This document shows, piece by piece, positions 3,050 through 49,023 of a stretch of DNA of 57,793 bases (the stretch's first letter is position 1; every line of letters begins with the position of its first letter). The position numbers and the translations under genes were made by a program. Source of the DNA: an uncultured Bacilli bacterium (GTDB lineage Bacteria > Bacillota_I > Bacilli_A > RF39 > UBA660); the NCBI GenBank assembly GCA_934130215.1, contig CAKOXR010000001.1, positions 1 through 57,793 of the forward strand. Reading direction: 5' to 3'. The notes below the pieces were generated by a model. It did no database searches. It saw only the letters and a program-made list of their open reading frames with translations, and was not told where the DNA came from.

Positions 3050-3078
3050 TTGAAATCGGAAAAAATATGTGGTATTAT
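3050..3078 (+). promoter_or_regulatory. Sigma-A type promoter of the tasA/sipW-like operon
   Basis: TTGAAA (3050-3055), 17-nt spacer, TATTAT (3073-3078), with an extended -10 TG at 3070-3071. Confidence 0.55.
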
Positions 3079-3100
3079 TTATACTAGGAGGAGGATAAAA

Positions 3101-3754
3101 ATGGAAAAAAATAGAAATAATCAAGTTATTGCTGTAATAGCACTTGTTATTGGTATAATTGGATTATCTGTTGGTTTTGCTGCATTTTCAAATGTTTTAA
3201 AAATACAATCTTCTGCTGAAGTAACACCTGATAAATCTACTTTAAATGTTGATTTTTCAAGTTCAAGCACTGAAGTTGCGACAGATGATATTACAGCTGT
3301 TACTACACCAACTACTGTTGTTGCTACAAAAGCTACTATTGATAATACTAATGATCCAACTATTTCCAATTTAAAAGCTACATTTACTGAACCTGGACAA
3401 AAAGCTGTTTATAGTTTTTATGCTTATAATAATGGTAAACTAGATGCTTATTTAAAAAGCATAGTATTTGAGAATGTTACTGGCCAAACATCTAGTAAAG
3501 TATGTAGTAGTAAAGAAGGTACAACTGATGCTTTAGTTCAAAGTGCTTGTAATGGTATTTCTGTTAAAGTTAAAGTTGGAAATGAAGCAGAAACAAGTGG
3601 AAGTGTTGCTAGTATAACTAATCACGAATTAATTAAAGCAAATAGTGAAATGGTTACTGTTACTATTGAATATCAAGCTGATGCAACTAGAGCTGATGGA
3701 GATTTTACTGTATCATTTGGTGATATAATATTGAATTATAGTTCAGTTGATTAA
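3101..3754 (+). CDS. Secreted TasA/camelysin-like beta-sandwich protein with a SipW-type signal peptide
   Basis: AGGAGG RBS then ATG at 3101. The hydrophobic segment ends in GFAAFSNVL, which resembles the SipW-cognate signal motif. Also has PGQKAVYSFYAYNNGKLDAYL (PG..f.v.N.G.ld pattern). Lies directly upstream of a SipW-like peptidase. Confidence 0.5.
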   Translation: MEKNRNNQVIAVIALVIGIIGLSVGFAAFSNVLKIQSSAEVTPDKSTLNVDFSSSSTEVATDDITAVTTPTTVVATKATIDNTNDPTISNLKATFTEPGQKAVYSFYAYNNGKLDAYLKSIVFENVTGQTSSKVCSSKEGTTDALVQSACNGISVKVKVGNEAETSGSVASITNHELIKANSEMVTVTIEYQADATRADGDFTVSFGDIILNYSSVD

Positions 3755-3759
3755 TTTAA

Positions 3760-3787
3760 ATGACACAGTAAGTCTGTGCCATTTTTG
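3760..3787 (+). terminator. Intra-operon hairpin/attenuator after the tasA-like gene
   Basis: ATGACACAG (3760-3768) pairs with CTGTGCCAT (3774-3782) with one mismatch and a 5-nt loop, followed by TTTT. Confidence 0.45.
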
Positions 3788-3803
3788 TTTAAGGAGATTA
3801 TTT

Positions 3804-4901
3804 ATGAAGAAAAGTTATGTTAAATTAATTATTATAAATTTTTTAACAATTTTATTTTGTTTATTTAATTCATTTTATTTTAAAAAAATAAATTCTTTAT
3901 TTTTAACTTTTTTTCTTATAATTTTACTTTTAATTACAAAAATATTGTTTGGATTTGAAAAAGATAAACATCGATATATTAAAGATGTTTGTTTAAAAAT
4001 AGTTATTAATTTATTTATATTTTTGATTTTTTATTATTTAGTTGGTATTTTTATAGGGTTTGCAAAAACTTATAATTTTTCTTCTTTAAAAGCTATAATA
4101 AATATTATATTTTATATTGTTATTAAAGAATATTTAAGATATACTTTAATTACAAAGTCTAGTGAAAGCAAATTTTTATTAATACTTACAACAATAATGT
4201 TTATTTTTATTGATAATACTATTGCTTTTTCAATAAATGGTTTTTTATTTAATAAAAGTACTTTTCTTTTAGTTGCTATTACATTTATTCCATCAATTAC
4301 AGAAAATATTTTATGTTCATGGATGAGTTTTAAATTTGGTTTTAAACCAGTTATGTTGTATTTATTAATTATAAAATTATATCTTTATATTTTACCTATT
4401 ATTCCAAATCCAAATGAATATATATATTCAATAATTTTCTTTTTACTGCCTATAATAATTTTATTTAATATTAAAAAATGGTTAGATAAAGGAGATTTAA
4501 ATATAGTTTTAAATAAAGCAAATATTATTCCATATTTTTTAATTGCTTTTTCTTTGATTTTGATTTATTTTGTTTCAGGTTATTTTAGATATTATGCAAT
4601 TGCGATTGCAAGTGGTTCTATGAATCCTGTAATCAAAAAGGGTGATGTTGTTATTGTTGATCAAAAGTTTAAAAATTTAAAAAAAGGTGATATAATTGCT
4701 TATAGATATAATGGAACTGTAATTGTTCATCGTATTAATGATTTAATTAGAGATAAAAATGATATTATTATTTATACTAAGGGTGATAGTAATAGTTCTT
4801 GTGATAGTTGGAAAGTTGAATATGATATGATAATTGGGGTTATTAATTATAAAATACCTTTAATTGGATATCCGACTGTATGGATTAATAATTATTGGTA
4901 G
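3804..4901 (+). CDS. Archaeal/SipW-type signal peptidase I (S26B) fused to an N-terminal ~280-aa polytopic membrane domain
   Basis: AAGGAG RBS then ATG at 3804. C-terminal catalytic motifs are SGSMNPVIKKGD (Ser), VHRI (His) and KGDSN. The preceding ~280 residues are almost entirely hydrophobic F/I/L-rich segments. Confidence 0.75.
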   Translation: MKKSYVKLIIINFLTILFCLFNSFYFKKINSLFLTFFLIILLLITKILFGFEKDKHRYIKDVCLKIVINLFIFLIFYYLVGIFIGFAKTYNFSSLKAIINIIFYIVIKEYLRYTLITKSSESKFLLILTTIMFIFIDNTIAFSINGFLFNKSTFLLVAITFIPSITENILCSWMSFKFGFKPVMLYLLIIKLYLYILPIIPNPNEYIYSIIFFLLPIIILFNIKKWLDKGDLNIVLNKANIIPYFLIAFSLILIYFVSGYFRYYAIAIASGSMNPVIKKGDVVIVDQKFKNLKKGDIIAYRYNGTVIVHRINDLIRDKNDIIIYTKGDSNSSCDSWKVEYDMIIGVINYKIPLIGYPTVWINNYW

Positions 4902-4912
4902 GGAGGTAATAT

Positions 4913-5965
4913 ATGTTTAAAAAGATGCATTTTTCTTATAATTTTAGATTAATTATAAATTATTTTTTGTTTTTTATTTTTCTAGTTTTAAGTTTTATAA
5001 TGATTTATAATTCTTTAGATATTAAAAAAGAAGAAAATATAAAATATAATGAAAAGGGTAGTATTAATTATAAGGTTTGTTTAAAAGAAAATAATTTTTA
5101 TGAAAATAGTTGTATAGATAATAATATGTCATATATTTCTGGTTTAATTAAAAATATACCTTTATATTTTGATTATAATTTTAAAGTTAATAAAAGCTCT
5201 AATATAATTGTTAAATATGAAGTTAGTTGTAATTTAGTTATTTCCAATATTGAAAATTCTTTAATTTATTTTAATAAAAATTATATATTAGTTCCATTAA
5301 CAGAGTCCATTTATCATAATAATAGTTATAATTTAGTTAATAATGATATTATAATTGATTATGATTATTATAATAATATTGCAAGTAATTTTAAAAGTGA
5401 ATTTGGTGTTGATACTAAGAGTTATTTAGAGGTTATATATACAGTTTATAATGAAATAAATGGTAATATTATATCTCCTAGTGTTAGCTCTATAAATATT
5501 CCTCTTTCACAAAAATCAATTGATATTAATATGAAATCTAATGATCTTTTAAATAGTGGTAATCAAAAAAGTTTTAAATATTCGATTAGTTTAGTTAATA
5601 TTATTTATTTTAGTTTAGGTTTAATTAGTTTTTTATGTTCTTTTATTTTTTTAATTAAGGGTATTAGGTTGTCGTTGTTAGTTTTATCTACTAAAAATGA
5701 ATATGATAAATATATTAATAAAATTTTAAAAGAATATGATAGATTAATTGTTGAGACAACTTCAATTCCTGATTTTAATGATTACAATGTTATTTTAATT
5801 AAAAAGTTTTCAGAATTACTTGATGTTAGAGATAATTTACATTTACCTATAATGTATTATGTTGTTGTTAAACATCATAAATCTTATTTATATATTTTAA
5901 ATAATAATAATTTATATTTACTTACTTTAAAAAGTGTTGATTTTTGTAAAGAGAGGGTAAAATGA
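4913..5965 (+). CDS. Two-TM membrane protein of unknown function (possibly DUF5305-like, a family I recall next to SipW-type peptidases)
   Basis: GGGAGG RBS. N-terminal TM, an extracytoplasmic region of about 200 aa, a second TM (IIYFSLGLISFLCSFIFLI), then a cytoplasmic tail of about 100 aa. Confidence 0.45.
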   Translation: MFKKMHFSYNFRLIINYFLFFIFLVLSFIMIYNSLDIKKEENIKYNEKGSINYKVCLKENNFYENSCIDNNMSYISGLIKNIPLYFDYNFKVNKSSNIIVKYEVSCNLVISNIENSLIYFNKNYILVPLTESIYHNNSYNLVNNDIIIDYDYYNNIASNFKSEFGVDTKSYLEVIYTVYNEINGNIISPSVSSINIPLSQKSIDINMKSNDLLNSGNQKSFKYSISLVNIIYFSLGLISFLCSFIFLIKGIRLSLLVLSTKNEYDKYINKILKEYDRLIVETTSIPDFNDYNVILIKKFSELLDVRDNLHLPIMYYVVVKHHKSYLYILNNNNLYLLTLKSVDFCKERVK

Positions 5966-7440
5966 TTAATAAAAAAATTTTATATTTTATTTTTTTCATT
6001 ATTTTATTTTTATCTATTGGTTTTTCTGCTTTTCAAAATAATTTAAGTATTGATAATATTTTTTTAAATGTTAATATTGATAAAGATATTAGAGTTATGG
6101 GGATTTCTGTTAATGAATCAAAAGATGCTTTTAGTACATATGAAGATTATAATGTTAGTAATATTAAATCAAATGTTACTTTATCTAATAGTAATTCATA
6201 TATTATTTATAAGATTCCTGTTTATAATTTAGGGAATGTTGTTATGGGTATTAGGAGTATAAGTATAAATTATGATAATTTAAGTGTTAGTATTTTAAAT
6301 TATGATTTAAAATCTAAACTTTGTGATGATAAATGTGCTTCTGGTGTAAAAAAAGATTTACTTGTTAAAATATCTTATAAGGATGGATTATTTGATAGTT
6401 TAAATACTTCTTATGATATTAAAATAGATTTTGTTTTTGGAAGAATATTTAATATTGATTATAAAGATATTGATATTTCTTATCCTAAAGAAATAATCGA
6501 GGGTGATACTTTAACTTTAAATATTCCTGATAGAGAAGATAGTTCTTTAAAAGTTTTTATGAATAAAAGAAAGTTAGTTATTGATTCTGATTATCAATAT
6601 TCATCTGGTGTTTTGACTATTCCAAATGTAGATGGTGATATTTCGATGTTTTTTAAATTACCGATTTGTCAAAGAGCAACAGTTCTTCATACTGAGGAGT
6701 GTACAGGTAAATTTTGTGGTGGTATGGGTTTTACTAATGATGGTAAAATGAAAACAACTACAATTACTTATGGTTCATTAGGAATTCAAGGTACTTTAAA
6801 TTCTGGTGATGCTTTTGATTGTGATACCAATGGTGATGGAGAATATAATCCAGAAACAGAAAGATTTTATTATGTTACAACAATGGGTGATGATTCTAGG
6901 GTTGCTGTTTTAATTTATTATAATAATGTTAGTGCTGGTGAACCTAATAATAATAGTTTTTATGCATATGATGATTTTGATGGAAATTGGTTTGGTCCTA
7001 GAGTTGCGATTCAACAACTTCCAACTAGAAGTCAATGGAGTAATATTAGTTTATCAAATACTGAAAGAAAAATAACAAATGAATATGGTACTAATAATAC
7101 TAAAGATAATCATACTTTTCCTAGTGTTTTTAGTTATGATGGTTATTCTGCTAGATTTTTAACTTATCAAGAGTTAAAAAAAGTTGTAAATAATATCCCA
7201 ACTTGGAAAAGTGGTGAATTTAATGATCATTTATATTTATCTGAGAATACTAAGTTTTCTAATGGTAAGGCATCTGTTTTTGATGGATATTGGTTAGAAA
7301 ATCCTCGATATGGTTTACCTACTTATGCTTGGTTTCTTTATACATCTGAAAGAAGGGTACATAGTGCTGATGTTAAAATAAATAATATTTATGGTGTTAG
7401 GCCAGTTATAGAAATTTCATTTGACGATATATTATATTAA
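5962..7440 (+). CDS. Large secreted protein with a SipW-type signal peptide and a C-terminal module ending YGVRPVIEI
   Basis: ATGA overlap with the upstream gene. The signal segment ends in GFSAFQNNL. Contains a Cys cluster CQRATVLHTEECTGKFCGG. The C-terminal pattern YWLENP...AW....YGVRPVI resembles DUF6273-like domains. Confidence 0.6.
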   Translation: MINKKILYFIFFIILFLSIGFSAFQNNLSIDNIFLNVNIDKDIRVMGISVNESKDAFSTYEDYNVSNIKSNVTLSNSNSYIIYKIPVYNLGNVVMGIRSISINYDNLSVSILNYDLKSKLCDDKCASGVKKDLLVKISYKDGLFDSLNTSYDIKIDFVFGRIFNIDYKDIDISYPKEIIEGDTLTLNIPDREDSSLKVFMNKRKLVIDSDYQYSSGVLTIPNVDGDISMFFKLPICQRATVLHTEECTGKFCGGMGFTNDGKMKTTTITYGSLGIQGTLNSGDAFDCDTNGDGEYNPETERFYYVTTMGDDSRVAVLIYYNNVSAGEPNNNSFYAYDDFDGNWFGPRVAIQQLPTRSQWSNISLSNTERKITNEYGTNNTKDNHTFPSVFSYDGYSARFLTYQELKKVVNNIPTWKSGEFNDHLYLSENTKFSNGKASVFDGYWLENPRYGLPTYAWFLYTSERRVHSADVKINNIYGVRPVIEISFDDILY

Positions 7441-18372: not shown

Positions 18373-18732
18373 ATGAATCAAAAAGGAATGACATTAGGTG
18401 TGGAAATATTTGTGATTGTTTTTTTTGCTTTTGCTGCTTTTTTTTCTGTGTATCTTTTAAGTAAATCTTTTACAGGAAAATATGAAGTTAATGAAAATAA
18501 ATTAAGTTATTATCTTAAAATAGAAAATGAACTTGAAAATGCAGCTAAAAAGTATATTGAAAAAAATGAAACCGGAGAAAAAATAGTAGTTAGTTCAAAT
18601 ACTTTAAGAGAAGTTGGGTATTATATAAATAGATGTAATGGTTATGTTATAATTGATAAATTATTATATAAACCATTTATAAAATGTGATGATTATACTA
18701 CAATTGGATATTCTAGTGAACTTGCTAATTAA
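18373..18732 (+). CDS. Small membrane-anchored protein, possibly a degenerate pseudopilin
   Basis: N-terminus MNQKGMTLGVEIFVIVFF is a near-miss of the G|FTLxE prepilin motif, with Glu at +6. Two Cys lie in the C-terminal part. Confidence 0.45.
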   Translation: MNQKGMTLGVEIFVIVFFAFAAFFSVYLLSKSFTGKYEVNENKLSYYLKIENELENAAKKYIEKNETGEKIVVSSNTLREVGYYINRCNGYVIIDKLLYKPFIKCDDYTTIGYSSELAN

Positions 18733-25713: not shown

Positions 25714-25788
25714 TTTTACCTCCATTATTATTTTATGCAATTTTACATTTTTTTTATAAGATTACTAGATTTTTTAAATTTAATACTG

Positions 25789-25794
25789 TATAAT
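25789..25794 (+). promoter_or_regulatory. Putative -10 element of pilin-like gene A
   Basis: TATAAT 20 nt upstream of the ATG. The same element sits at the same spacing upstream of paralogue B (28222-28227). Confidence 0.35.
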
Positions 25795-25813
25795 TTAAAT
25801 GGTAGGTGAATAT

Positions 25814-27856
25814 ATGAAAAAAGGTTTTACTTTAGTTGAACTAATAGTAGTTATTGTTTTACTTTCATTAATAACGGTTTTTACATTTCCAAGTATAAAT
25901 AAATTATTAAATGAAAGAAAAGAAAAATTATATAATATTCAGATAGAAAATATAAAATTATCTGCTCAAAATTATATAAATAAATATCAATTATTTAATA
26001 CAAGTGATAAAGTTATGGTTACACTTTGTCAATTAAAACAAAGTGGATTTACGGATGAAAATATAAAAGATCCAAGAACAGGTGTTTTAATTTCTGATAA
26101 TTCTATGGTAATTGCTTTAAAAAATACAAATGAATATACATTTATGCCTGGTTTAGATAGCACAACATCTTGTTCAGTAAATGATAGTATTCTTTATGAA
26201 TATATTGAAGTTGGAAGCGAATATATTTTAAAAAATGATGATAGCAAATATACAATTACAATATATCTAAATAATGAGGAAGTAGATAGTGTAGATACAA
26301 GTGAAATAAATACTTATGTTATAAAATATGTTTCTAGCAATGAAACAATAAATAAATATGTATATATTATTGATACAACAGGACCTAATATTGAATATGT
26401 TAATGAACAAACATATAGAGATAAAAATGGTTATGAAGAAAGTAGTAAAAAAATAGGTGAGGGAACAATTTTTATAAGTGCTAGTCAGAATAGTACTTTT
26501 GTTCCTTTCCCTGCTACGGCTATTGATAAAGGTGAGGGTGAAACAACACTTGAAATAACATCTAATGTTAATTTAAAAATACCTGGTATATACTATATTA
26601 CTTATTCAAGCAAAGATTCCAAAGGTAATGCAACGACTAAAAATCAAACTATTGAAGTATATGATGATGTAGCACCTGTAATAGATAATATTTCAGGAAT
26701 ACCAAATGGTAAAACATCTAATAGTATAGTATTAACAGTTGATGCCCATGATAATGAATCAGGATTACATCCAAGAGGAGCATATTCATTTGATGGTGGT
26801 GCGACATGGCAAGTAAGTGATACAATTAATGTTACAGAAAATAAAACATTAAATATAGTAGTTAGAGATGCAGCTTTAAATGAAACAAGAAGAACTGTTA
26901 CAATTAATAATATATTAAAAGATGATAAAACATTATCATTTAATATTAAAAAAGGAACTATGAAAAATAGTGGCTGGTATGTAGATAATGTTGAAGTTGA
27001 AATAAAACCTTTAGTAAATGAAGAATATTTTAGTTCTTATAGTTATTGTATAAGTTCAAATACTAATTGTACACCTAATAAAGAAATTAGAACAATTAAT
27101 AGCACTACTGAAGTAATTAGTCAAAGTACAACAGGATTATATATATGTGGATATGTTACTAAAAAAGATGGTACAAGAACTTCTCAAGTATGTAGTATGA
27201 ATATTAAAATTGATAAAGAATTACCTACTTGTGAAATTGAATATCAATCAAATTATGATATATCACTTGGTTTACCAGGTAAAATCATTGTCAAAGATAG
27301 TATAAGTGGTGCTGCTACTAATCCAATTTCATTTTTGTTAAAAAGTTCAAAGACTTATGAAATATACGATAAAGCTGGTAATAGAAATACTTGTGAAGTA
27401 AAAGTAAAAGTAACATTACAACATAGATATAAAACATGTGCTGGCTATAAATCTTGTGCAAATGCTGATTATTGTGGAAGAAATACTTATAGCTGTAATT
27501 GTAGTGATTGCAAGTATGGATCAAATACTTGTAGAGGAGGCTGCAATAGAAGTAAATGTTCTCGATATTATTGCTGTTCTAATTTAGCAGGTACTCGTTG
27601 TAAATCTCTTAGTCGTCCAGGCAATTATAAATATTGTAGTTGTACTGATTATAAATGTACTGATTGGGATTCATGTAAATATGGATCAAATACTTGTTCT
27701 TATGGATGTGATACATGTCAAGGAGATGCTAAATCGTGTGCTAATCCAACATGTGGATGTGCTTCATATTCATATTCTGAATGGACACTTGGGGCATGTA
27801 CAAATGTACCTGGCAAAACTTGTGAAACTCGTGGTGGATATTTAAGAGGTGATTAG
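25814..27856 (+). CDS. Large modular type IV pilin-like protein A: prepilin signal, Ig-like modules, Cys-rich C-terminal module
   Basis: MKKG|FTLVELIVVIVLLSLITVF has Gly at -1, Phe at +1 and Glu at +5. Ig-like modules include TAIDKGEGETTLEITSNVNLKIPGIYYITY and DNESGLHPRGAYSFDGGATWQ. By my count there are 24 Cys in the last ~140 aa. Confidence 0.75.
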   Translation: MKKGFTLVELIVVIVLLSLITVFTFPSINKLLNERKEKLYNIQIENIKLSAQNYINKYQLFNTSDKVMVTLCQLKQSGFTDENIKDPRTGVLISDNSMVIALKNTNEYTFMPGLDSTTSCSVNDSILYEYIEVGSEYILKNDDSKYTITIYLNNEEVDSVDTSEINTYVIKYVSSNETINKYVYIIDTTGPNIEYVNEQTYRDKNGYEESSKKIGEGTIFISASQNSTFVPFPATAIDKGEGETTLEITSNVNLKIPGIYYITYSSKDSKGNATTKNQTIEVYDDVAPVIDNISGIPNGKTSNSIVLTVDAHDNESGLHPRGAYSFDGGATWQVSDTINVTENKTLNIVVRDAALNETRRTVTINNILKDDKTLSFNIKKGTMKNSGWYVDNVEVEIKPLVNEEYFSSYSYCISSNTNCTPNKEIRTINSTTEVISQSTTGLYICGYVTKKDGTRTSQVCSMNIKIDKELPTCEIEYQSNYDISLGLPGKIIVKDSISGAATNPISFLLKSSKTYEIYDKAGNRNTCEVKVKVTLQHRYKTCAGYKSCANADYCGRNTYSCNCSDCKYGSNTCRGGCNRSKCSRYYCCSNLAGTRCKSLSRPGNYKYCSCTDYKCTDWDSCKYGSNTCSYGCDTCQGDAKSCANPTCGCASYSYSEWTLGACTNVPGKTCETRGGYLRGD

Positions 27857-28183
27857 ATGAAAAAATATATTCCGTATATTATGATTTGCTTAATTATTGT
27901 GATTACTATTATTTCTATTTTAGGTATTAATTATTCTAAAAAGAATAATATTAGTTTAGATGAAAAGATGAAAAATTATTGTGAACAAATTTTTAAAAAT
28001 GAAGAAATTGGATCTAATGAGGTATATGTTTCTTTAAAATCCATGAAGGAAAGATATAATTTAGATATTTCTGATTTTACTAATCCTAAACATAATTGTT
28101 CTCTTGAAAATAGTATGGCAAAAGCAAGTAAAGTAAACGGTAAGTTAACTTGTTCTATTAATTTAATTTGTGAAAATATGTAA
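27857..28183 (+). CDS. Small membrane-anchored Cys-containing protein between the pilin-like paralogues
   Basis: Its ATG directly abuts the TAG of gene A. N-terminal hydrophobic helix and four extracytoplasmic Cys. Confidence 0.55.
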   Translation: MKKYIPYIMICLIIVITIISILGINYSKKNNISLDEKMKNYCEQIFKNEEIGSNEVYVSLKSMKERYNLDISDFTNPKHNCSLENSMAKASKVNGKLTCSINLICENM

Positions 28184-28246
28184 AAGTTTAGTTTATACTA
28201 GACTTTTTTGTTTTTAATTTGTATAATTTAGATAGTAGGTGGTCTA

Positions 28247-30283
28247 ATGAAAAAAGGTTTTACTTTAGTTGAGTTGATAGTGGTTATTGTTTTACTTTCA
28301 TTGATAACAGTTTTTACATTTCCTAGTATAAATAAGTTATTAATTGAAAGAAAAGAAAAATTATATAATGTTCAAGTTGAAAATATTAAATTATCTGCTC
28401 AAAATTATATAAATAAAAATCATTTATTAAGTAGTAATGATAAAGTATTTGTTACTCTTTGTCAGTTAAAACAAGCTGGTTTTACTGATGAAAATATTAA
28501 AGATCCTAGAACTGGTGTTTTATTTCCAAATGATTCAAAAGTTATTGCTTTAAAAGACAATTCAGAATATGAATTTGTTTTAGGGGAGGGTGGAAATACA
28601 ACTTGCTCTAAAAATGATAATACTTTGTTTGAGTTTATTGAGGTTGGTAGTACTTATATAGAAAGTATGAATAAGAATAAGTATAATATTACAATTTATT
28701 TAGATAATAAAGAAGTTGATAATATTGATACTAGTTGTGAAGACACTTATGTTATTAAGTATGAGGATTCTAATAAAGAGATAATTTATAAATATGTTTA
28801 TGTAATAGATACAAGTGGTCCAGATATTAGTTATGTTAATGAAATTGAGATGGTTGATGAAAATAATAATAAATTTAAAAGTCGTGAAATTGGTAAGGGT
28901 ACAATTGTTTTACTAGCAAATCAATATAATATTTTTACGGCTTATAAAGCAAAATCAATTGATAGTAACGATGGAGAAGTAGAGGTTACTTCTAAATCTA
29001 ATGTTAATTTAAAAATACCTGGTGTTTATTATATTACTTATACTAGTACTGATGAAAAAGGGAATACAACAACAAAAAATCAAAAACTTGAAGTTATTGA
29101 TAATGTAAAACCAGTAATTGATAGTATTGATGGAATTCCAAATAATAAAACTACAGGTACTATTACAGTTACTGTAAAAGCTCATGATAATGAATCAGGA
29201 TTACATCCTAGGGGTGCTTATTCGTTTGATGGTGGAAATACATGGCAAGTAAGTAATACAATTAATATTGTAGATAATAAAACTATTGATATTGTTGTTA
29301 GAGATTCTGCTTTAAATAAAATTAATAAAACTATTACAATTAATAATATTTATAAAGATGATAAAAGTTTAACTTTTAATATTGTAAATGGAACTTTAAA
29401 AAATAATGGTTGGTTTATAAATGATGTTAGGTTAGAGATTAAACCTGTTGCGAAAGAAAATTTTAAATCTTATAGTTATTGTATAGGTTCTGATTCTAGA
29501 TGTACTCCAAATAAAACTATATATTCATTAACTAGTACTTATGAAACTATTAATTATAATACAAAAGGAGTATATGTTTGTGGGTATGTTACTAAAAGTG
29601 ATTATACAAAAACAGATATAGTTTGTAGTATGAATATTAAGGTAGATAAAGAAAAACCAACATGTTATCCTTCATATAACTCTAATTATGATATAACATC
29701 AGGTGTTTCTGGAAATATTATTGTAAATGATGCAATTAGTGGACCTACAACAAGTTCAATTCCATTCTTTTTAAGAAGTAATCAAACATATAAAGTTTAT
29801 GATAATGCAGGAAATGAAAATACTTGTGAAGCAAAAGTTAGAAGTGAAACTCAATATCAAACAAGATCGTGTGCAAGATATAAAAGCTGTAAAAGTGAAA
29901 AATACTGTGGAAATGAATACTATGCTTGTAATTGTAGTGATTGTAAAATACAATTAAGATCATGTGTTGGAGGATGGAAAGGTACCAATTGCACTCGTTG
30001 GAAATGTTGTAATAAAAAATCAAAAAAAATACCGTGTTTTTATACTAGTGATCCAGGAAGGCGTACAAATTGTAATTGTGTAAAAACAGAAAAATCAGAT
30101 TGGGACGATTGCCTACATCAAAGCACTCAATGTGCATGGGGCTGTGATGAATGTAAAGGTGGAGCTCGTTCATGTGTTAATCCAACATGTGGATGTAAAA
30201 CATGGAATTATAGCGGTTGGAATAACGGAAGCTGTAATGGAAGAAGCAATTGTAGTGAAAGAACAGTTTATTATCCAGGATAA
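28247..30283 (+). CDS. Large modular type IV pilin-like protein B, paralogue of A
   Basis: The first 33 residues are identical to A and the two stay collinear throughout. By my count there are 22 Cys in the C-terminal ~140 aa. Confidence 0.75.
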   Translation: MKKGFTLVELIVVIVLLSLITVFTFPSINKLLIERKEKLYNVQVENIKLSAQNYINKNHLLSSNDKVFVTLCQLKQAGFTDENIKDPRTGVLFPNDSKVIALKDNSEYEFVLGEGGNTTCSKNDNTLFEFIEVGSTYIESMNKNKYNITIYLDNKEVDNIDTSCEDTYVIKYEDSNKEIIYKYVYVIDTSGPDISYVNEIEMVDENNNKFKSREIGKGTIVLLANQYNIFTAYKAKSIDSNDGEVEVTSKSNVNLKIPGVYYITYTSTDEKGNTTTKNQKLEVIDNVKPVIDSIDGIPNNKTTGTITVTVKAHDNESGLHPRGAYSFDGGNTWQVSNTINIVDNKTIDIVVRDSALNKINKTITINNIYKDDKSLTFNIVNGTLKNNGWFINDVRLEIKPVAKENFKSYSYCIGSDSRCTPNKTIYSLTSTYETINYNTKGVYVCGYVTKSDYTKTDIVCSMNIKVDKEKPTCYPSYNSNYDITSGVSGNIIVNDAISGPTTSSIPFFLRSNQTYKVYDNAGNENTCEAKVRSETQYQTRSCARYKSCKSEKYCGNEYYACNCSDCKIQLRSCVGGWKGTNCTRWKCCNKKSKKIPCFYTSDPGRRTNCNCVKTEKSDWDDCLHQSTQCAWGCDECKGGARSCVNPTCGCKTWNYSGWNNGSCNGRSNCSERTVYYPG

Positions 30284-39493: not shown

Positions 39494-39728
39494 AATAACC
39501 GTTGTTGAGATAAGTGCTATATGGTGTCCTAGTTGTTTAGTAATGAGACCTATATATGATAAAATATATAAAAAATATAATTTATCTGTTATTAAATTAG
39601 ATTATGATACTGATTCAATTAATGAATATAATGTTGGTAATATATTACCAGTTTTAATAATCAATGATAAAAGATTTATTGGTGAAGTTAATATAAAGGA
39701 AATAGAAAATTATTTGGAGAATTTATGA
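39483..39728 (+). CDS. Small thioredoxin-fold protein (WCPSC)
   Basis: 81 aa, no signal peptide, CxxC motif WCPSC. Overlaps the desulfurase stop. Confidence 0.7.
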   Translation: MENKITVVEISAIWCPSCLVMRPIYDKIYKKYNLSVIKLDYDTDSINEYNVGNILPVLIINDKRFIGEVNIKEIENYLENL

Positions 39729-40189
39729 AAAAAATAGTATTTATTTTATTATTTATGATATTTATAAATGTTAATGCAAAAGTAAATGTTTCATTATTTT
39801 ATGGAGAAGGATGTCCTTATTGTAAGAATTTTGAAGAATTTGCTTATAAAAATAGTGAAAAATATGATTTTAATCTTATAAAATATGAAGTTTGGTCTAA
39901 TAAAAAAAATAATGATTTATTAAAAAAAGTTGCTTCTAAATTTGGTGATACTGATATAGGTATTCCTTATATAGTTATTGGTAATAAAAGAATTATTGGA
40001 TGGACTAGTGCTAAAACAAAATTATTTGTTGATTTAATTAATAAACAAAAAGAATATGAAATGTGTGATATTATAAATGATAACTCTTGTACAAAAGATA
40101 GTGGTACAAATATATCAATTTTTAAAGGAACCGTATTTGCAACATATATTAAAAATTATGCTACAATTGTTTTAAATTTATTTGGATAG
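39725..40189 (+). CDS. Secreted thioredoxin/glutaredoxin-fold CxxC protein
   Basis: Signal peptide, GCPYC motif, IPYIVIGN (cis-Pro loop region). ATGA overlap with the upstream gene. Confidence 0.65.
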   Translation: MKKIVFILLFMIFINVNAKVNVSLFYGEGCPYCKNFEEFAYKNSEKYDFNLIKYEVWSNKKNNDLLKKVASKFGDTDIGIPYIVIGNKRIIGWTSAKTKLFVDLINKQKEYEMCDIINDNSCTKDSGTNISIFKGTVFATYIKNYATIVLNLFG

Positions 40190-40198
40190 GATGTATAT

Positions 40199-41356
40199 AT
40201 GAAGAAGTTAATTTTAATTTTTATAAGTTTTTTTATAATATTTAATGTAAGTGCTAAAACAGCAAAAGTTTATTTATTTTATGGAGATGGTTGTCCACAT
40301 TGTTCTCAATTTGAGAAGTTTGCTAACAAAAATAAAGATAAATATAATTTTGAAATTATTTCTTATGAAACATGGTATAATGATGAAAATAGTGCTTTAT
40401 TAGATAAATTATATGAAAAATTTAATGATAATAAAGCAGGAGTCCCTTATATTGTTATAGGAAATCAAAGAATTATTGGTTGGAATACTGCTAATGAAGA
40501 AAAGTTTATTTCAATGATTAAAAAAAATAGACAAAATGATATTTGTGATATTGTAGAAGATGTTTTAAATGGAACAAATAAATGTACTTTAGGCTTAGAT
40601 ATTGATGGTAAAGTAAAAATACCTTTTATTGGTTATGTTGAACCAGAAGAAGCTTCTTTAGGTTTGATTGCAATGATAATCGGACTTGTTGATGGATTTA
40701 ATCCATGTGCAATGTGGGTTTTATTATTTTTACTTTCAGTTTTAATTAATATGAAAGATAGAAAAAGAATGTGGGTTATTGGTTTTACTTTTCTATTTAC
40801 AAGTGGTTTAGTATATTTTCTTATTATGGGATCTTGGGTAACTGTTGTATCTAAGATGAGTGATATTATTTTATTAAGAAATATAATTGCTATAATTGCT
40901 GTAATAGGGGGTATATATAATTTATATAACTTTTTTAAAGTTAGTCCAACAGGTTGTAATGTAACAGATAATAAAAAAAGAAAAAAAATAATGGATCGTA
41001 TAAAAGAATTTTGTTTAGAAAAAAACTTTTTGCTTGCTATTATTGGAACTATTGGTTTAGCTGTTTCTATTAATGTAGTAGAACTTGCTTGTTCTGCAGG
41101 ATTACCTATAGTTTTTTCAGAAATTCTTAGTGTTAATAATTTAAGTGGTTTTGAACATTTTATATATTTATTAATTTATATAATTTTCTTTATGTTAGAT
41201 GATATTATTATTTTTATATTAGCGATGACTACAATGAAATTAACTGGAATATCAAATAAATATAGTAAATATTCTCATTTAGTAGGTGGTTTAATTATGA
41301 TAGTTGTTGGAATACTTTTACTTTTTAAACCAGAATGGATAATGTTAAGTTTTTAG
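40199..41356 (+). CDS. Secreted thioredoxin-fold CxxC domain fused to a DsbD/CcdA-like multi-TM domain
   Basis: The N-terminal ~120 aa are paralogous to the previous gene (GCPHC, VPYIVIGN). The membrane part carries GFNPCAMW and ELACSAGLP, which look like TM-embedded Cys motifs. Confidence 0.6.
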   Translation: MKKLILIFISFFIIFNVSAKTAKVYLFYGDGCPHCSQFEKFANKNKDKYNFEIISYETWYNDENSALLDKLYEKFNDNKAGVPYIVIGNQRIIGWNTANEEKFISMIKKNRQNDICDIVEDVLNGTNKCTLGLDIDGKVKIPFIGYVEPEEASLGLIAMIIGLVDGFNPCAMWVLLFLLSVLINMKDRKRMWVIGFTFLFTSGLVYFLIMGSWVTVVSKMSDIILLRNIIAIIAVIGGIYNLYNFFKVSPTGCNVTDNKKRKKIMDRIKEFCLEKNFLLAIIGTIGLAVSINVVELACSAGLPIVFSEILSVNNLSGFEHFIYLLIYIIFFMLDDIIIFILAMTTMKLTGISNKYSKYSHLVGGLIMIVVGILLLFKPEWIMLSF

Positions 41357-47439: not shown

Positions 47440-49023
47440 ATGAAAAAACAAATTTTATTTTTATCGATTTTATTTTTATTATTTTTTATATTATCTTATA
47501 CATTTTCTATATTTAATAGTTTTATTAATGGAGATATAAGTGCGAATATTAAAGATTGGGTTTTTAAGGTTAATATTATTGATGCTATTGTAGAAAATGA
47601 TGGTTATAAATTAAATTTAAATGGTACTAGTGGCGAGATTAATATAAATATTAATACTATAGGTGGTAATAAGAGTGTTGATTATTCTATAGAATTAATT
47701 GGGGATAATTCTATTGAGTATTATGAAGATAATAATTATACTCAATTAATTCATAATAATATCTATAATGATAGTGTTGATCATAATTCAAATATTAATA
47801 AGAAAATATATTATAAATCAAATAATAATAGTGATATTTTTATTAAAACAAAAGCTAGTATAAAAGAATATGCGATTATGAAGAATGGGAATTATTATAG
47901 TAACAATACTGAATTTTGGAATAATAATTATAAACCTTATATTAAAACAATTAACTTTAGTAATGATTTGAGTAATTTACCAAGTAATTGTACTATAGAA
48001 AATTTATGTTGGGATATATCTGAAAATGAAAATCAGAAGAAAAAGGTATATGGTTATTTAGTTGATACTGGGTTAAAAGATAGTACTGATAATACTAAAC
48101 CATTATATGATTTGTATATAGTTAGCAAACATGAAATATTTGCACCAATAAATTGTGGAAAAATATTTTCATTTTATAAAACTGAAAATAATAAAGATAT
48201 ATCTAATTTAACTCAAATTAATTTTAATAATAATTTTAATACCTCAAATGTTACAAATATGAATAATATTTTTGCATTGTGTAAACAATTAAAGAGTTTA
48301 GATTTAAGTAATTTTAATACGGCAAATGTAACAGATATGAATGCTATGTTTAATTTTTGTAGTTCTATAGTTAATTTAAATTTGAGTGGTTTTAATACCT
48401 CTAATGTAACAAATATGACTCAAATGTTTGGGGACTGTAAAGCTTTAACAAGTTTAGATTTAAGTGGCTTTAATACAATGAATGTAACAAATATGAATTT
48501 TATGTTTAATTATTGTAGTTCTTTAGTAAATTTAAATTTAAGTAGTTTTAATACTGTGAAAGTAACAAGTATGCATAGTATGTTTACTCAATGTTCATCA
48601 TTGACAAGTCTAGATTTAAGTAGTTTTAATACCTCAAATGTAACAAATATGTCATATATGTTTCAATCATGTTCAAAGTTAAAAACTTTAAATCTAAATA
48701 ATTTTGATACGACAAAAGTTACTGATATGAGAAGTATGTTTTTTAGATGTACAAGTTTATATAATTTATATATTAATAATTTTAATACGGCAAATTTAGT
48801 AAATACTTTCAGAATGTTTAGCAATTGTTATTCTGCAGTTGCAACGATAACCATAAGAAATAGTAATGTTAATGACTATAGTTCAATGTTTTCCAATGCT
48901 GCTATCTATTCAGGAGCTAAAATAATTGTTAATTATACATCAAATACAAGTGCTATAGTTGATAGTATGATTGCAACAAAATCAGCAAGTAGTAATGTTA
49001 TAAAAGGAAGTTTAGTTTCATGA
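47440..49023 (+). CDS. Surface protein with DUF285/BspA-type 26-residue leucine-rich repeats and a SipW-type signal peptide
   Basis: Signal segment ends in YTFSIFNSFINGDISANIKDWVFKVN. About eight repeats of FNTSNVTNMxxMFxxCSSLxSLDLSx. Confidence 0.8.
   Translation: MKKQILFLSILFLLFFILSYTFSIFNSFINGDISANIKDWVFKVNIIDAIVENDGYKLNLNGTSGEINININTIGGNKSVDYSIELIGDNSIEYYEDNNYTQLIHNNIYNDSVDHNSNINKKIYYKSNNNSDIFIKTKASIKEYAIMKNGNYYSNNTEFWNNNYKPYIKTINFSNDLSNLPSNCTIENLCWDISENENQKKKVYGYLVDTGLKDSTDNTKPLYDLYIVSKHEIFAPINCGKIFSFYKTENNKDISNLTQINFNNNFNTSNVTNMNNIFALCKQLKSLDLSNFNTANVTDMNAMFNFCSSIVNLNLSGFNTSNVTNMTQMFGDCKALTSLDLSGFNTMNVTNMNFMFNYCSSLVNLNLSSFNTVKVTSMHSMFTQCSSLTSLDLSSFNTSNVTNMSYMFQSCSKLKTLNLNNFDTTKVTDMRSMFFRCTSLYNLYINNFNTANLVNTFRMFSNCYSAVATITIRNSNVNDYSSMFSNAAIYSGAKIIVNYTSNTSAIVDSMIATKSASSNVIKGSLVS
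48234..48850 (+). repeat. About eight tandem 78-nt (26-codon) coding repeats
   Basis: The periodic FNT[SA]NVT[ND]M..MF..C..L..L[DN]LS block is read directly from the translation. Confidence 0.8.

Follow-up and report, generated by a model that had tools for sequence, protein, structure and literature searches.

Two adjacent genes, A and B, in the 57,793-nt contig CAKOXR010000001.1 of an uncultured Bacilli bacterium (the whole contig is hereafter called the window; G+C content 22.6%) encode modular type IV pilins. Each protein comprises a pilin module of approximately 118 residues, five immunoglobulin (Ig)/cadherin-like beta modules, and a Cys-rich tail of approximately 140 residues. With a probability of about 0.6, A and B are modular minor type IV pilins that would be cleaved by a PilD-type enzyme and mounted on a type IV filament, probably at its tip. 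The observations behind this reading are the prepilin signal and its conservation, the modular architecture, a mosaic of carrier and cargo modules, a conserved locus, and the type IV filament genes of relatives. An earlier inspection of the letters and translations, hereafter the sequence-only reading, had described two open reading frames (ORFs) of about 680 residues, each opening with a class III prepilin signal, and both points were borne out. The two genes are located as follows.

25814–27856, plus strand: gene A, a 680-aa modular prepilin (ORF call; PF07963, TIGR02532, and PF16403 matches)
28247–30283, plus strand: gene B, a 678-aa modular prepilin with the architecture of A

Both N-termini read MKKG|FTLVELIVVIVLLSLITVF, i.e., a short basic leader, Gly at −1, Phe at +1, Glu at +5, and a hydrophobic stretch. 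A and B alike exceed the curated cut-offs of PF07963 (23.0 bits against 21.2) and TIGR02532 (24.3 bits against 16.3), and the hexapeptide G-F-T-L-V-E occurs only twice in the six frames of the window, once in each gene. The reading frame of gene A includes a formal alternative start at 25799, and the MKKG start is present in all homologues. Gly−1, Thr+2, and Glu+5 are invariant in an alignment of 16 family members. Among the 100 relatives listed, 94 carry G[FY][TA][LI][VI]E, in nearly all cases preceded by MKK as leader, and the remaining six are Ig-module matches with ordinary signal peptides. BLASTP aligns A with B from end to end at 59% identity and 75% positives over 682 columns, close to the 60% that had been estimated by eye, and the patch AHDNESGLHPRGAYSFDGG(A/N)TWQ is indeed identical in both proteins. 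One detail of the sequence-only reading requires correction: the first 32 residues, not 33, are identical, residue 33 being N in A and I in B.

Hidden Markov models (HMMs), structure models, and Foldseek comparisons agree with the earlier proposal of a pilin module carrying grafted Ig-like modules and a Cys-dense terminal module. The parts of A, and the tip of B, are as follows.

25814–26167, plus strand: pilin (carrier) module of A, residues 1–118, with leader MKK, Gly−1, Phe+1, and Glu+5
26168–27427, plus strand: stalk of A, residues 119–538, five beta-sandwich modules with boundaries near residues 186, 285, 367, and 466
27428–27856, plus strand: Cys-rich tip of A, residues 539–680 and the stop codon, 24 Cys
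from about 29861, plus strand: Cys-rich tip of B, 22 Cys

In the AlphaFold2 model of A (m869afa268d52; mean predicted local distance difference test (pLDDT) 76, with the tail at low confidence), a helix spans residues 7–57, head strands are located at 66–70, 98–102, and 107–111, and module boundaries fall near residues 118, 186, 285, 367, 466, and 538. When modeled alone with AlphaFold2 (pLDDT 86), the pilin module consists of an α1 helix (7–58) and a small head with strands at 66–70, 98–102, and 108–111. Its PDB sequence matches, to PilE1, geopilin, and MshA, are weak (E 0.02–0.04) and cover residues 2–59 only. In the stalk of A, PF16403 (Bact_surface_Ig-like) covers approximately residues 225–282, module 3 contains an Asp-box-like motif (YSFDGGATW), and module 5 ends in a HYR-like stretch; the PDB sequence matches of the stalk are an Ig-like domain annotated as bacillolysin (2kpn) and a protocadherin. 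Foldseek with the whole chain returned protocadherin EC1–4, the GhpA grappling-hook neck, and an RTX-adhesin extender, and these generic Ig/cadherin arrays were rejected as a clue to the ligand. The Cys-rich tail contains the internal repeat CKYGSNTC..GC and had no match among Pfam families or PDB sequences. It is hypervariable in sequence and length between paralogues and species, and the 16-member alignment is accordingly well conserved only to about residue 540. The C-termini (...CETRGGYLRGD and ...CSERTVYYPG) contain no LPXTG.

Homologue searches, which report the closest 100–120 clusters, gave approximately 60 clusters of full-length relatives among the matches listed (45–97% identity), almost all from gut metagenome assemblies, and no source had a name for them. 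Related loci are designated here by L numbers and related proteins by P numbers. In species-representative genomes, full-length relatives were found only in metagenome-assembled genomes (MAGs) of uncultured Bacilli/'Tenericutes' (L008–L015, L045, L051, and L080), of which L008 (CAKPQS010000012.1) belongs to an uncultured Bacilli bacterium sampled from the Hadza. The remaining 65 matches in these genomes, from Lachnospiraceae and Clostridia loci, share only the internal YSFDGGxTW Ig module. In exhaustive searching with a profile of the pilin module, 50,513 representative clusters passed E ≤ 1e-3, 6,094 passed E ≤ 1e-10, and 90 passed E ≤ 1e-30. Among the best 150 of these matches, lengths run from 74 to 1,599 aa, and many are stand-alone pilins of 110–135 aa; those whose sequences were inspected (116–129 aa) have natural C-termini. 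Because it occurs both as stand-alone pilins and in long proteins, the pilin module is a general carrier, used alone or grafted. The tips of other family members include the following.

P0053: a longer stalk and a Cys knob as tip/extension
P0059: a DUF285/BspA-type leucine-rich repeat (LRR) domain as tip
376-aa pilin of L094: a DUF6273 domain as tip

Three tandem pilin-like genes of 591–609 aa in L080 (9986–15912; 'Tenericutes'/Bacilli MAG) and a single 1,530-aa pilin-like gene in L051 (9980–14572), on a complete 1.49-Mb chromosome, indicate that arrays of giant pilin-like genes recur in these lineages.

The tip of P0059 has a counterpart in the window itself. The product of ORF 47440–49023 is an LRR surface protein of the DUF285/BspA type; it carries an ordinary signal peptide, and its C-terminal region is 56% identical to that tip over 354 aa; the same cargo is therefore found on two kinds of anchor. 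This likeness lends some weight to a reading in which the class III signal of A and B, cleaved or not, is a membrane anchor, the Ig stalk spans the wall, and the adhesins are never polymerized; a stalk of five Ig modules would be long enough for a Gram-positive wall. Such a plain anchor is nevertheless unlikely, since Glu+5 and Gly−1 are kept in essentially all members and the same head makes stand-alone pilins with nothing to display. In addition, the pilin head, which anchoring does not need, belongs to the module that is best conserved between paralogues (78% identity between A and B in the window) and between species.

The minor-pilin reading is likewise consistent with the way in which the modules have diverged. 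Identities between A and B, in the order pilin module, modules 1–5, and Cys tail, are as follows.

Strain L001: 99/100/100/100/100/62/47%
L002, a different species: 89/97/94/98/100/87/42%
Window: 78/61/53/72/59/56/41%

In a nucleotide profile of the window against L001, the flanks are 70–90% identical, averaging about 82%. Across gene A, between about 26100 and the stop codon, identity to L001 is 98–99%, and this island is also present against L008, whereas gene B falls under the background, at 65–74%. The B proteins of the window and L001 share 53–72% identity per module, i.e., they are different alleles. The low identity of gene B indicates replacement of the B allele. In 18 cluster representatives of A, the pilin module is 14.5% different from that of the window, and the stalk modules and tail are only 1–3.6% different. 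It follows from the per-module and nucleotide identities that the stalk has been homogenized between the tandem copies while the tips were kept different, and that a cassette of stalk and tip has spread recently from lineage to lineage, one recombination breakpoint being located within the pilin module or immediately behind it. A lineage-specific pilin module fits a module that must match the assembly machinery of its host.

The gene pair is accompanied by conserved upstream elements and by a small ORF between A and B.

25766–25813, plus strand: upstream element of gene A, with a −35-like TAGATT (25766–25771), a 17-nt spacer, and TATAAT (25789–25794)
25801–25808, plus strand: Shine–Dalgarno sequence of gene A, GGTAGGTG
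28199–28246, plus strand: upstream element of gene B, with TAGACT (28199–28204), a 17-nt spacer, and TATAAT (28222–28227)
within 28199–28246, plus strand: Shine–Dalgarno sequence of gene B, GTAGGTGG
27857–28183, plus strand: small ORF of 108 aa, anchored in the membrane by its N-terminus and containing 4 Cys, its ATG directly after the TAG of A

The coordinates confirm that in both copies the last base of TATAAT lies exactly 20 nt before the A of the ATG. The promoter-like element of gene B matches the consensus at 10/12 positions; a promoter call by consensus alone was rejected, because the 55 matches observed barely exceed those in shuffled AT-rich DNA (40 ± 7) and are not significant alone. 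The element TACTAGA(C/T)TTTT...TGTATAATTTAAATGGTAGGTG is common to A and B in the window, L001, and L089, and is partly present in L002; TACTAGAC...TGTATAATTTAAATGGTAGGTG followed by ATG is found in most copies of three lineages. It is this retention across copies and species, and not the consensus match, that favors a real promoter and ribosome-binding site, without proving them. Between the small ORF and gene B no terminator was predicted, and Rfam and tRNA scans of the window gave no match.

Orthologues of the small ORF are found in L001 (107 aa) and L089 (110 aa), with the 4 Cys kept in all three, and it is absent from L002. Its interpretation as a degenerate pilin was rejected (BLASTP E 0.45; pilin-module HMM 11.9 bits). 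A small membrane-protein gene that begins right after the stop codon of A, and a hypervariable C-terminus on a conserved N-terminal carrier, are also what would be expected of a polymorphic toxin, with the variable tail as the delivered effector and the small ORF as its immunity protein. This reading was rejected as barely credible. The 99%-identity island ends at the stop codon of A and the small ORF is at the background level against L001 (73–83% identity), so the small ORF apparently did not travel with the tail of A. Furthermore, the tail has no enzyme-like or toxin match, no such gene lies downstream of B, L002 lacks the small ORF, and other tips of the family are adhesin-type domains, namely LRR and DUF6273.

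Divergently upstream of gene A lies sigK, as the sequence-only reading had stated (TIGR02846, 300.2 bits against a cut-off of 298.65). The layout sigK(−)/pilin/small ORF/pilin/proS is kept in a related species, whose ProRS is 91% identical, and sigK is the immediate divergent neighbor in the window, L001, and L089. Cys-rich proteins are a typical constituent of spore coats and exosporia, and relatives carry the spore genes CotE, YabP/YqfD, and Coat_F. Taken with the position of sigK, these points could suggest that A and B are sporulation-linked surface proteins, with expression tied to sigK and the Cys-rich tail cross-linked into outer spore layers or appendages. This is very improbable, as the sigK neighborhood is not kept in L002 or L003, the conserved upstream element resembles a sigma-A type −35/−10 pair, and family members with non-Cys tips exist. 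A prepilin signal, moreover, directs export over the cytoplasmic membrane of the vegetative cell.

Information regarding a possible assembly machine has been obtained from related low-GC Bacilli. L003/L007 and L094 contain a complete Tad operon with flp (G|QALVEY), tadE, tadZ, tadA, tadB, and tadC, and the true TadE of L007 and L094 reads G|QALVEF. In L094, tadC is followed, after a gap of only 2 nt, by 376-aa and 388-aa modular pilins that begin with MKKG|FTLVELL, and in the L003/L007/L094 clade (two species) a family member of 483 or 651 aa is located 5–8 kb further downstream. Placement of such pilins directly after tadC in related lineages argues against a mere membrane anchor. A metagenome scan with TadA detected 54 Tad loci. 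In the clade with at least 91% TadA identity, such a pilin lies within about 1.6 kb of tadC in 8/8 loci with enough downstream sequence, and in more distant Tad loci (L118, L143, L129, and L123) the link is sporadic. Beside its Tad operon, L106 (4709–7757) has genes for a two-domain PilC-like protein, assigned to T2SSF by Pfam, and for a bifunctional peptidase of the PilD/ComC type (A24_N_bact + Peptidase_A24). L111 (6864–10655; same species as L112) encodes a PilC-like homologue that is 50% identical to that of L106, a PilD/ComC-type peptidase, and a second full-length T2SSE ATPase (423 bits). With these two gene sets, related low-GC Bacilli do have the enzymes for processing and assembling G|FTLVE pilins. 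The Tad loci of L106 and L111 showed no short TadV-type peptidase; therefore, Flp may be processed by the PilD-type enzyme there.

Several results weigh against mounting of A and B on a filament. Machinery of the host genome was sought in the window, and a Pfam scan of the 52 other window ORFs of at least 90 aa found no T2SSE, T2SSF, or Peptidase_A24; tblastn of the window with TadA, PilC-like, PilD, and ATPase queries, and motif screens, likewise gave no match. The earlier statement that no pilus machinery occurs in the 57.8 kb is thus upheld. Within 10 kb of other full-length members, no ATPase, platform, or prepilin peptidase gene was found outside the L003/L007/L094 clade. The Tad linkage is largely one inherited synteny, with roughly three independent occurrences, and Tad systems normally polymerize Flp-type, not GFTLVE-type, pilins. 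The best NCBIfam matches of the KG|FTLVE helix, to ComGD, ComGE, ComGF, ComGG, and GspG, reach only 21–26 bits, far below the equivalog cut-offs of 49–89 bits; they involve the N-terminus only, and size and architecture are unrelated. Finally, Foldseek with the isolated pilin module gave a best E of 1.9 against PDB. This was not taken as evidence against a pilin fold; because no significant PDB match was found, the pilin assignment, which is a prediction, rests on signal HMMs, conserved motif, and topology.

The first of these points, which the sequence-only reading had treated as a puzzle of the locus, is not special to it. Large and small pilins of the subfamily are orphaned throughout these Bacilli: in two Bacilli MAGs, stand-alone subfamily pilins lie in the operon rpmB(−)/dnaE/pilin/cvpA/thioredoxin/rsmE. 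Since even stand-alone pilins are orphans, orphan placement is a habit of the lineage rather than something peculiar to A and B. In related lineages, genes for type IV filaments are indeed encoded elsewhere, and the puzzle of the missing machinery largely dissolves. Orphan genes among housekeeping genes in every species examined, stand-alone pilins included, are also what display by a membrane anchor would predict, and they count on the side of that unlikely alternative. In L092 (10001–10357) and L093 (8538–8900), stand-alone pilins of 118–120 aa overlap the dnaE stop codon and are apparently translationally coupled, an odd placement for a pilin.

On the minor-pilin reading, A and B would be made with the 3-residue leader MKK, inserted into the membrane through the hydrophobic α1-N helix, and cleaved after Gly−1 by a prepilin peptidase of the PilD/ComC type whose gene would lie in another part of the genome. 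The pilin module of approximately 118 residues would then incorporate them into a type IV filament. The tip is the most probable site, since the filament body could not accommodate the bulky C-terminal part. The machine used might be a PilB/PilC/PilD-like set or Tad. The five Ig/cadherin-like modules would form a rigid stalk that holds out the Cys-rich knob of approximately 140 residues, which may be the ligand-binding (adhesin) part, and the tandem copies would present two knobs, with two specificities, on one carrier. Gene conversion would keep the stalks alike, and lineages would trade the stalk-plus-tip cassette but each retain its own pilin module. A more specific and doubtful proposal is that, in these gut Bacilli with reduced genomes, a Tad (type IVc) machine, served by a PilD-type bifunctional peptidase instead of TadV, uses type IVa-like modular pilins of the G|FTLVE type to prime or cap its Flp filament. 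If true, the filament would be a Tad hybrid, with pilins encoded chromosome-wide and a library of stalk-and-tip cassettes that are exchangeable and move between species.

Modular pilins have been defined by Raynaud et al. (2021; PMC8179133), who reported more than 1,200 of them, distributed over 264 architectures; some have several domains, and lengths reach 860 residues. They are widespread and were argued or predicted to be located at the tip, with a predicted role as exposed adhesins; the prototypes are Streptococcus sanguinis PilB, with a vWA module, and PilC, with a lectin module (PMC8179133). A and B correspond to this definition, with a class III signal, a small pilin module, and grafted modules that are not specific to pilus biology, here N_methyl combined with PF16403 Bact_surface_Ig-like and tandem Ig/cadherin-like fold matches. 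They differ from the prototypes in cargo, which is a vWA or ConA-like lectin module in S. sanguinis and five Ig/cadherin-like modules with an unclassified Cys-rich knob here, and in placement, inside the pil locus in S. sanguinis and as tandem orphans here. They also differ in their homogenized stalk, diverging tips, and a stalk-plus-tip cassette that seems to move between lineages. Pfam and NCBIfam searches gave no vWA or lectin match for A and B, and no pil genes were found in the window; S. sanguinis PilB and PilC are accordingly not their orthologues.

CofB of enterotoxigenic E. coli and TcpB of Vibrio cholerae resemble A and B in that a pilin module is followed by beta-repeat or beta-sandwich domains, which project from the pilus tip of type IVb pili (PMC8179133). 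By contrast with A and B, they are encoded inside their own pilus operons in diderm type IVb systems, and PDB searches with A found no sequence or fold match to them. The equivalogs of ComGC/D/E/F match A and B at 17–26 bits against cut-offs of 49–80, in the N-terminal helix only. In related Bacilli, the Tad (type IVc) operon is directly followed by modular pilins of the A/B subfamily; Flp pilins themselves have a G|xxxxEY motif and a mature size of approximately 50 residues, whereas A and B have G|FTLVEL and an α1 helix of approximately 50 residues. A and B did not match PF04964 (Flp_Fap), and TadF reached 13.4 bits against a cut-off of 27.3. As all of these equivalog and motif comparisons fail, A and B do not belong to the ComG, GspG, or Flp/TadE/TadF families. 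Stalk modules and tips are shared with the Ig-repeat adhesins of Firmicutes (DUF5011/PF16403, HYR, and Big) and BspA-type DUF285 LRR proteins. The Ig-repeat adhesins P0074, P0081, and P0093 carry Sec signal peptides, whereas A and B have a prepilin signal and neither LPXTG nor another C-terminal anchor, and thus are not sortase-anchored LPXTG adhesins.

A and B are most likely adhesins at the pilus tip and belong to a general kind that was known before, and the framework of modular pilins is unchanged but extended to a new lineage and a new architecture. New are the architecture itself, the unclassified Cys-rich tip, the carrier/cargo dynamics of the tandem copies with transfer between lineages, and the scattering of pilin genes through housekeeping operons. 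The host lineages are uncultured, very AT-rich Bacilli with small genomes that are common in non-industrial human guts; a report on reduced-genome gut lineages (PMC12306168) makes no mention of these pilins. A pilin-borne adhesin family with interchangeable tips would provide concrete candidates for attachment to hosts, mucus, or partner cells. With one allele apparently spreading across lineages at 98–99% DNA identity, the locus illustrates cleanly, in nature, the carrier-and-cargo logic that has been put forward for modular pilins.

Additional observations were made at the Tad loci. TadB of L007 (8502–10004) and L094 (8499–10001) is 500 aa long and carries an N-terminal PF16403 Ig-like domain, which is unusual for a Tad platform protein. 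TadA-bearing contigs of GC 0.23–0.24 (L128, L112, and L129) are not attributable to the genome of the window. In L121 (11419–12150) and L122 (14241–14945), a sigK homologue with 64–65% protein identity to SigK of the window lies on the minus strand 1.3–2.5 kb after tadC. An ancestral tad-sigK-pilin neighborhood was considered on this basis and rejected: L121 and L122 lack a pilin and the window lacks tad genes, and the arrangement, a remnant or a coincidence, stays a curiosity.

A divergent pilin-like ORF that the sequence-only reading had missed is also located in the window.

18373–18732, plus strand: 119-aa divergent pilin-like ORF reading MNQKG|MTLGVE, its Glu placed at +6 and not at +5

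It is 31% identical to the pilin module of A over 84 aa (E 5e-6), scores 21.8 bits with the pilin-module HMM, is flanked by genes for an NrtR-like regulator and an RseP-type M50 protease, and is conserved in L001. The other genes identified by Pfam comprise a cell-wall and division cluster (penicillin-binding protein, MraY, MurG, MurB, FtsQ, and Mur ligases) with two FtsW/RodA-type genes, ProRS, GluRS, an ABC transporter, a SipW-type signal peptidase cluster, and the DUF285 protein described above. The four-gene SipW-type cluster (3050–7440) encodes, in order, a 234-aa signal-anchor protein, a 384-aa polytopic membrane protein with an archaeal-type signal peptidase I (TIGR02228, 74.8 bits; SipW-like match), a DUF5305 protein, and a 492-aa signal-anchor protein. 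It may be a second, separate surface-fiber or surface-display system. A link made by eye between the C-terminal motif GVRPVIE of ORF 5962–7440 and Tad-linked pilin tips was rejected, as BLAST gave no match. Finally, the products of two adjacent genes at 39725–41356 are exported, resemble thioredoxin/glutaredoxin, and contain CPYC and CPHC motifs; a polytopic membrane domain is fused to the second. This pair could be an extracytoplasmic thiol-disulfide system for Cys-rich exports such as A and B.

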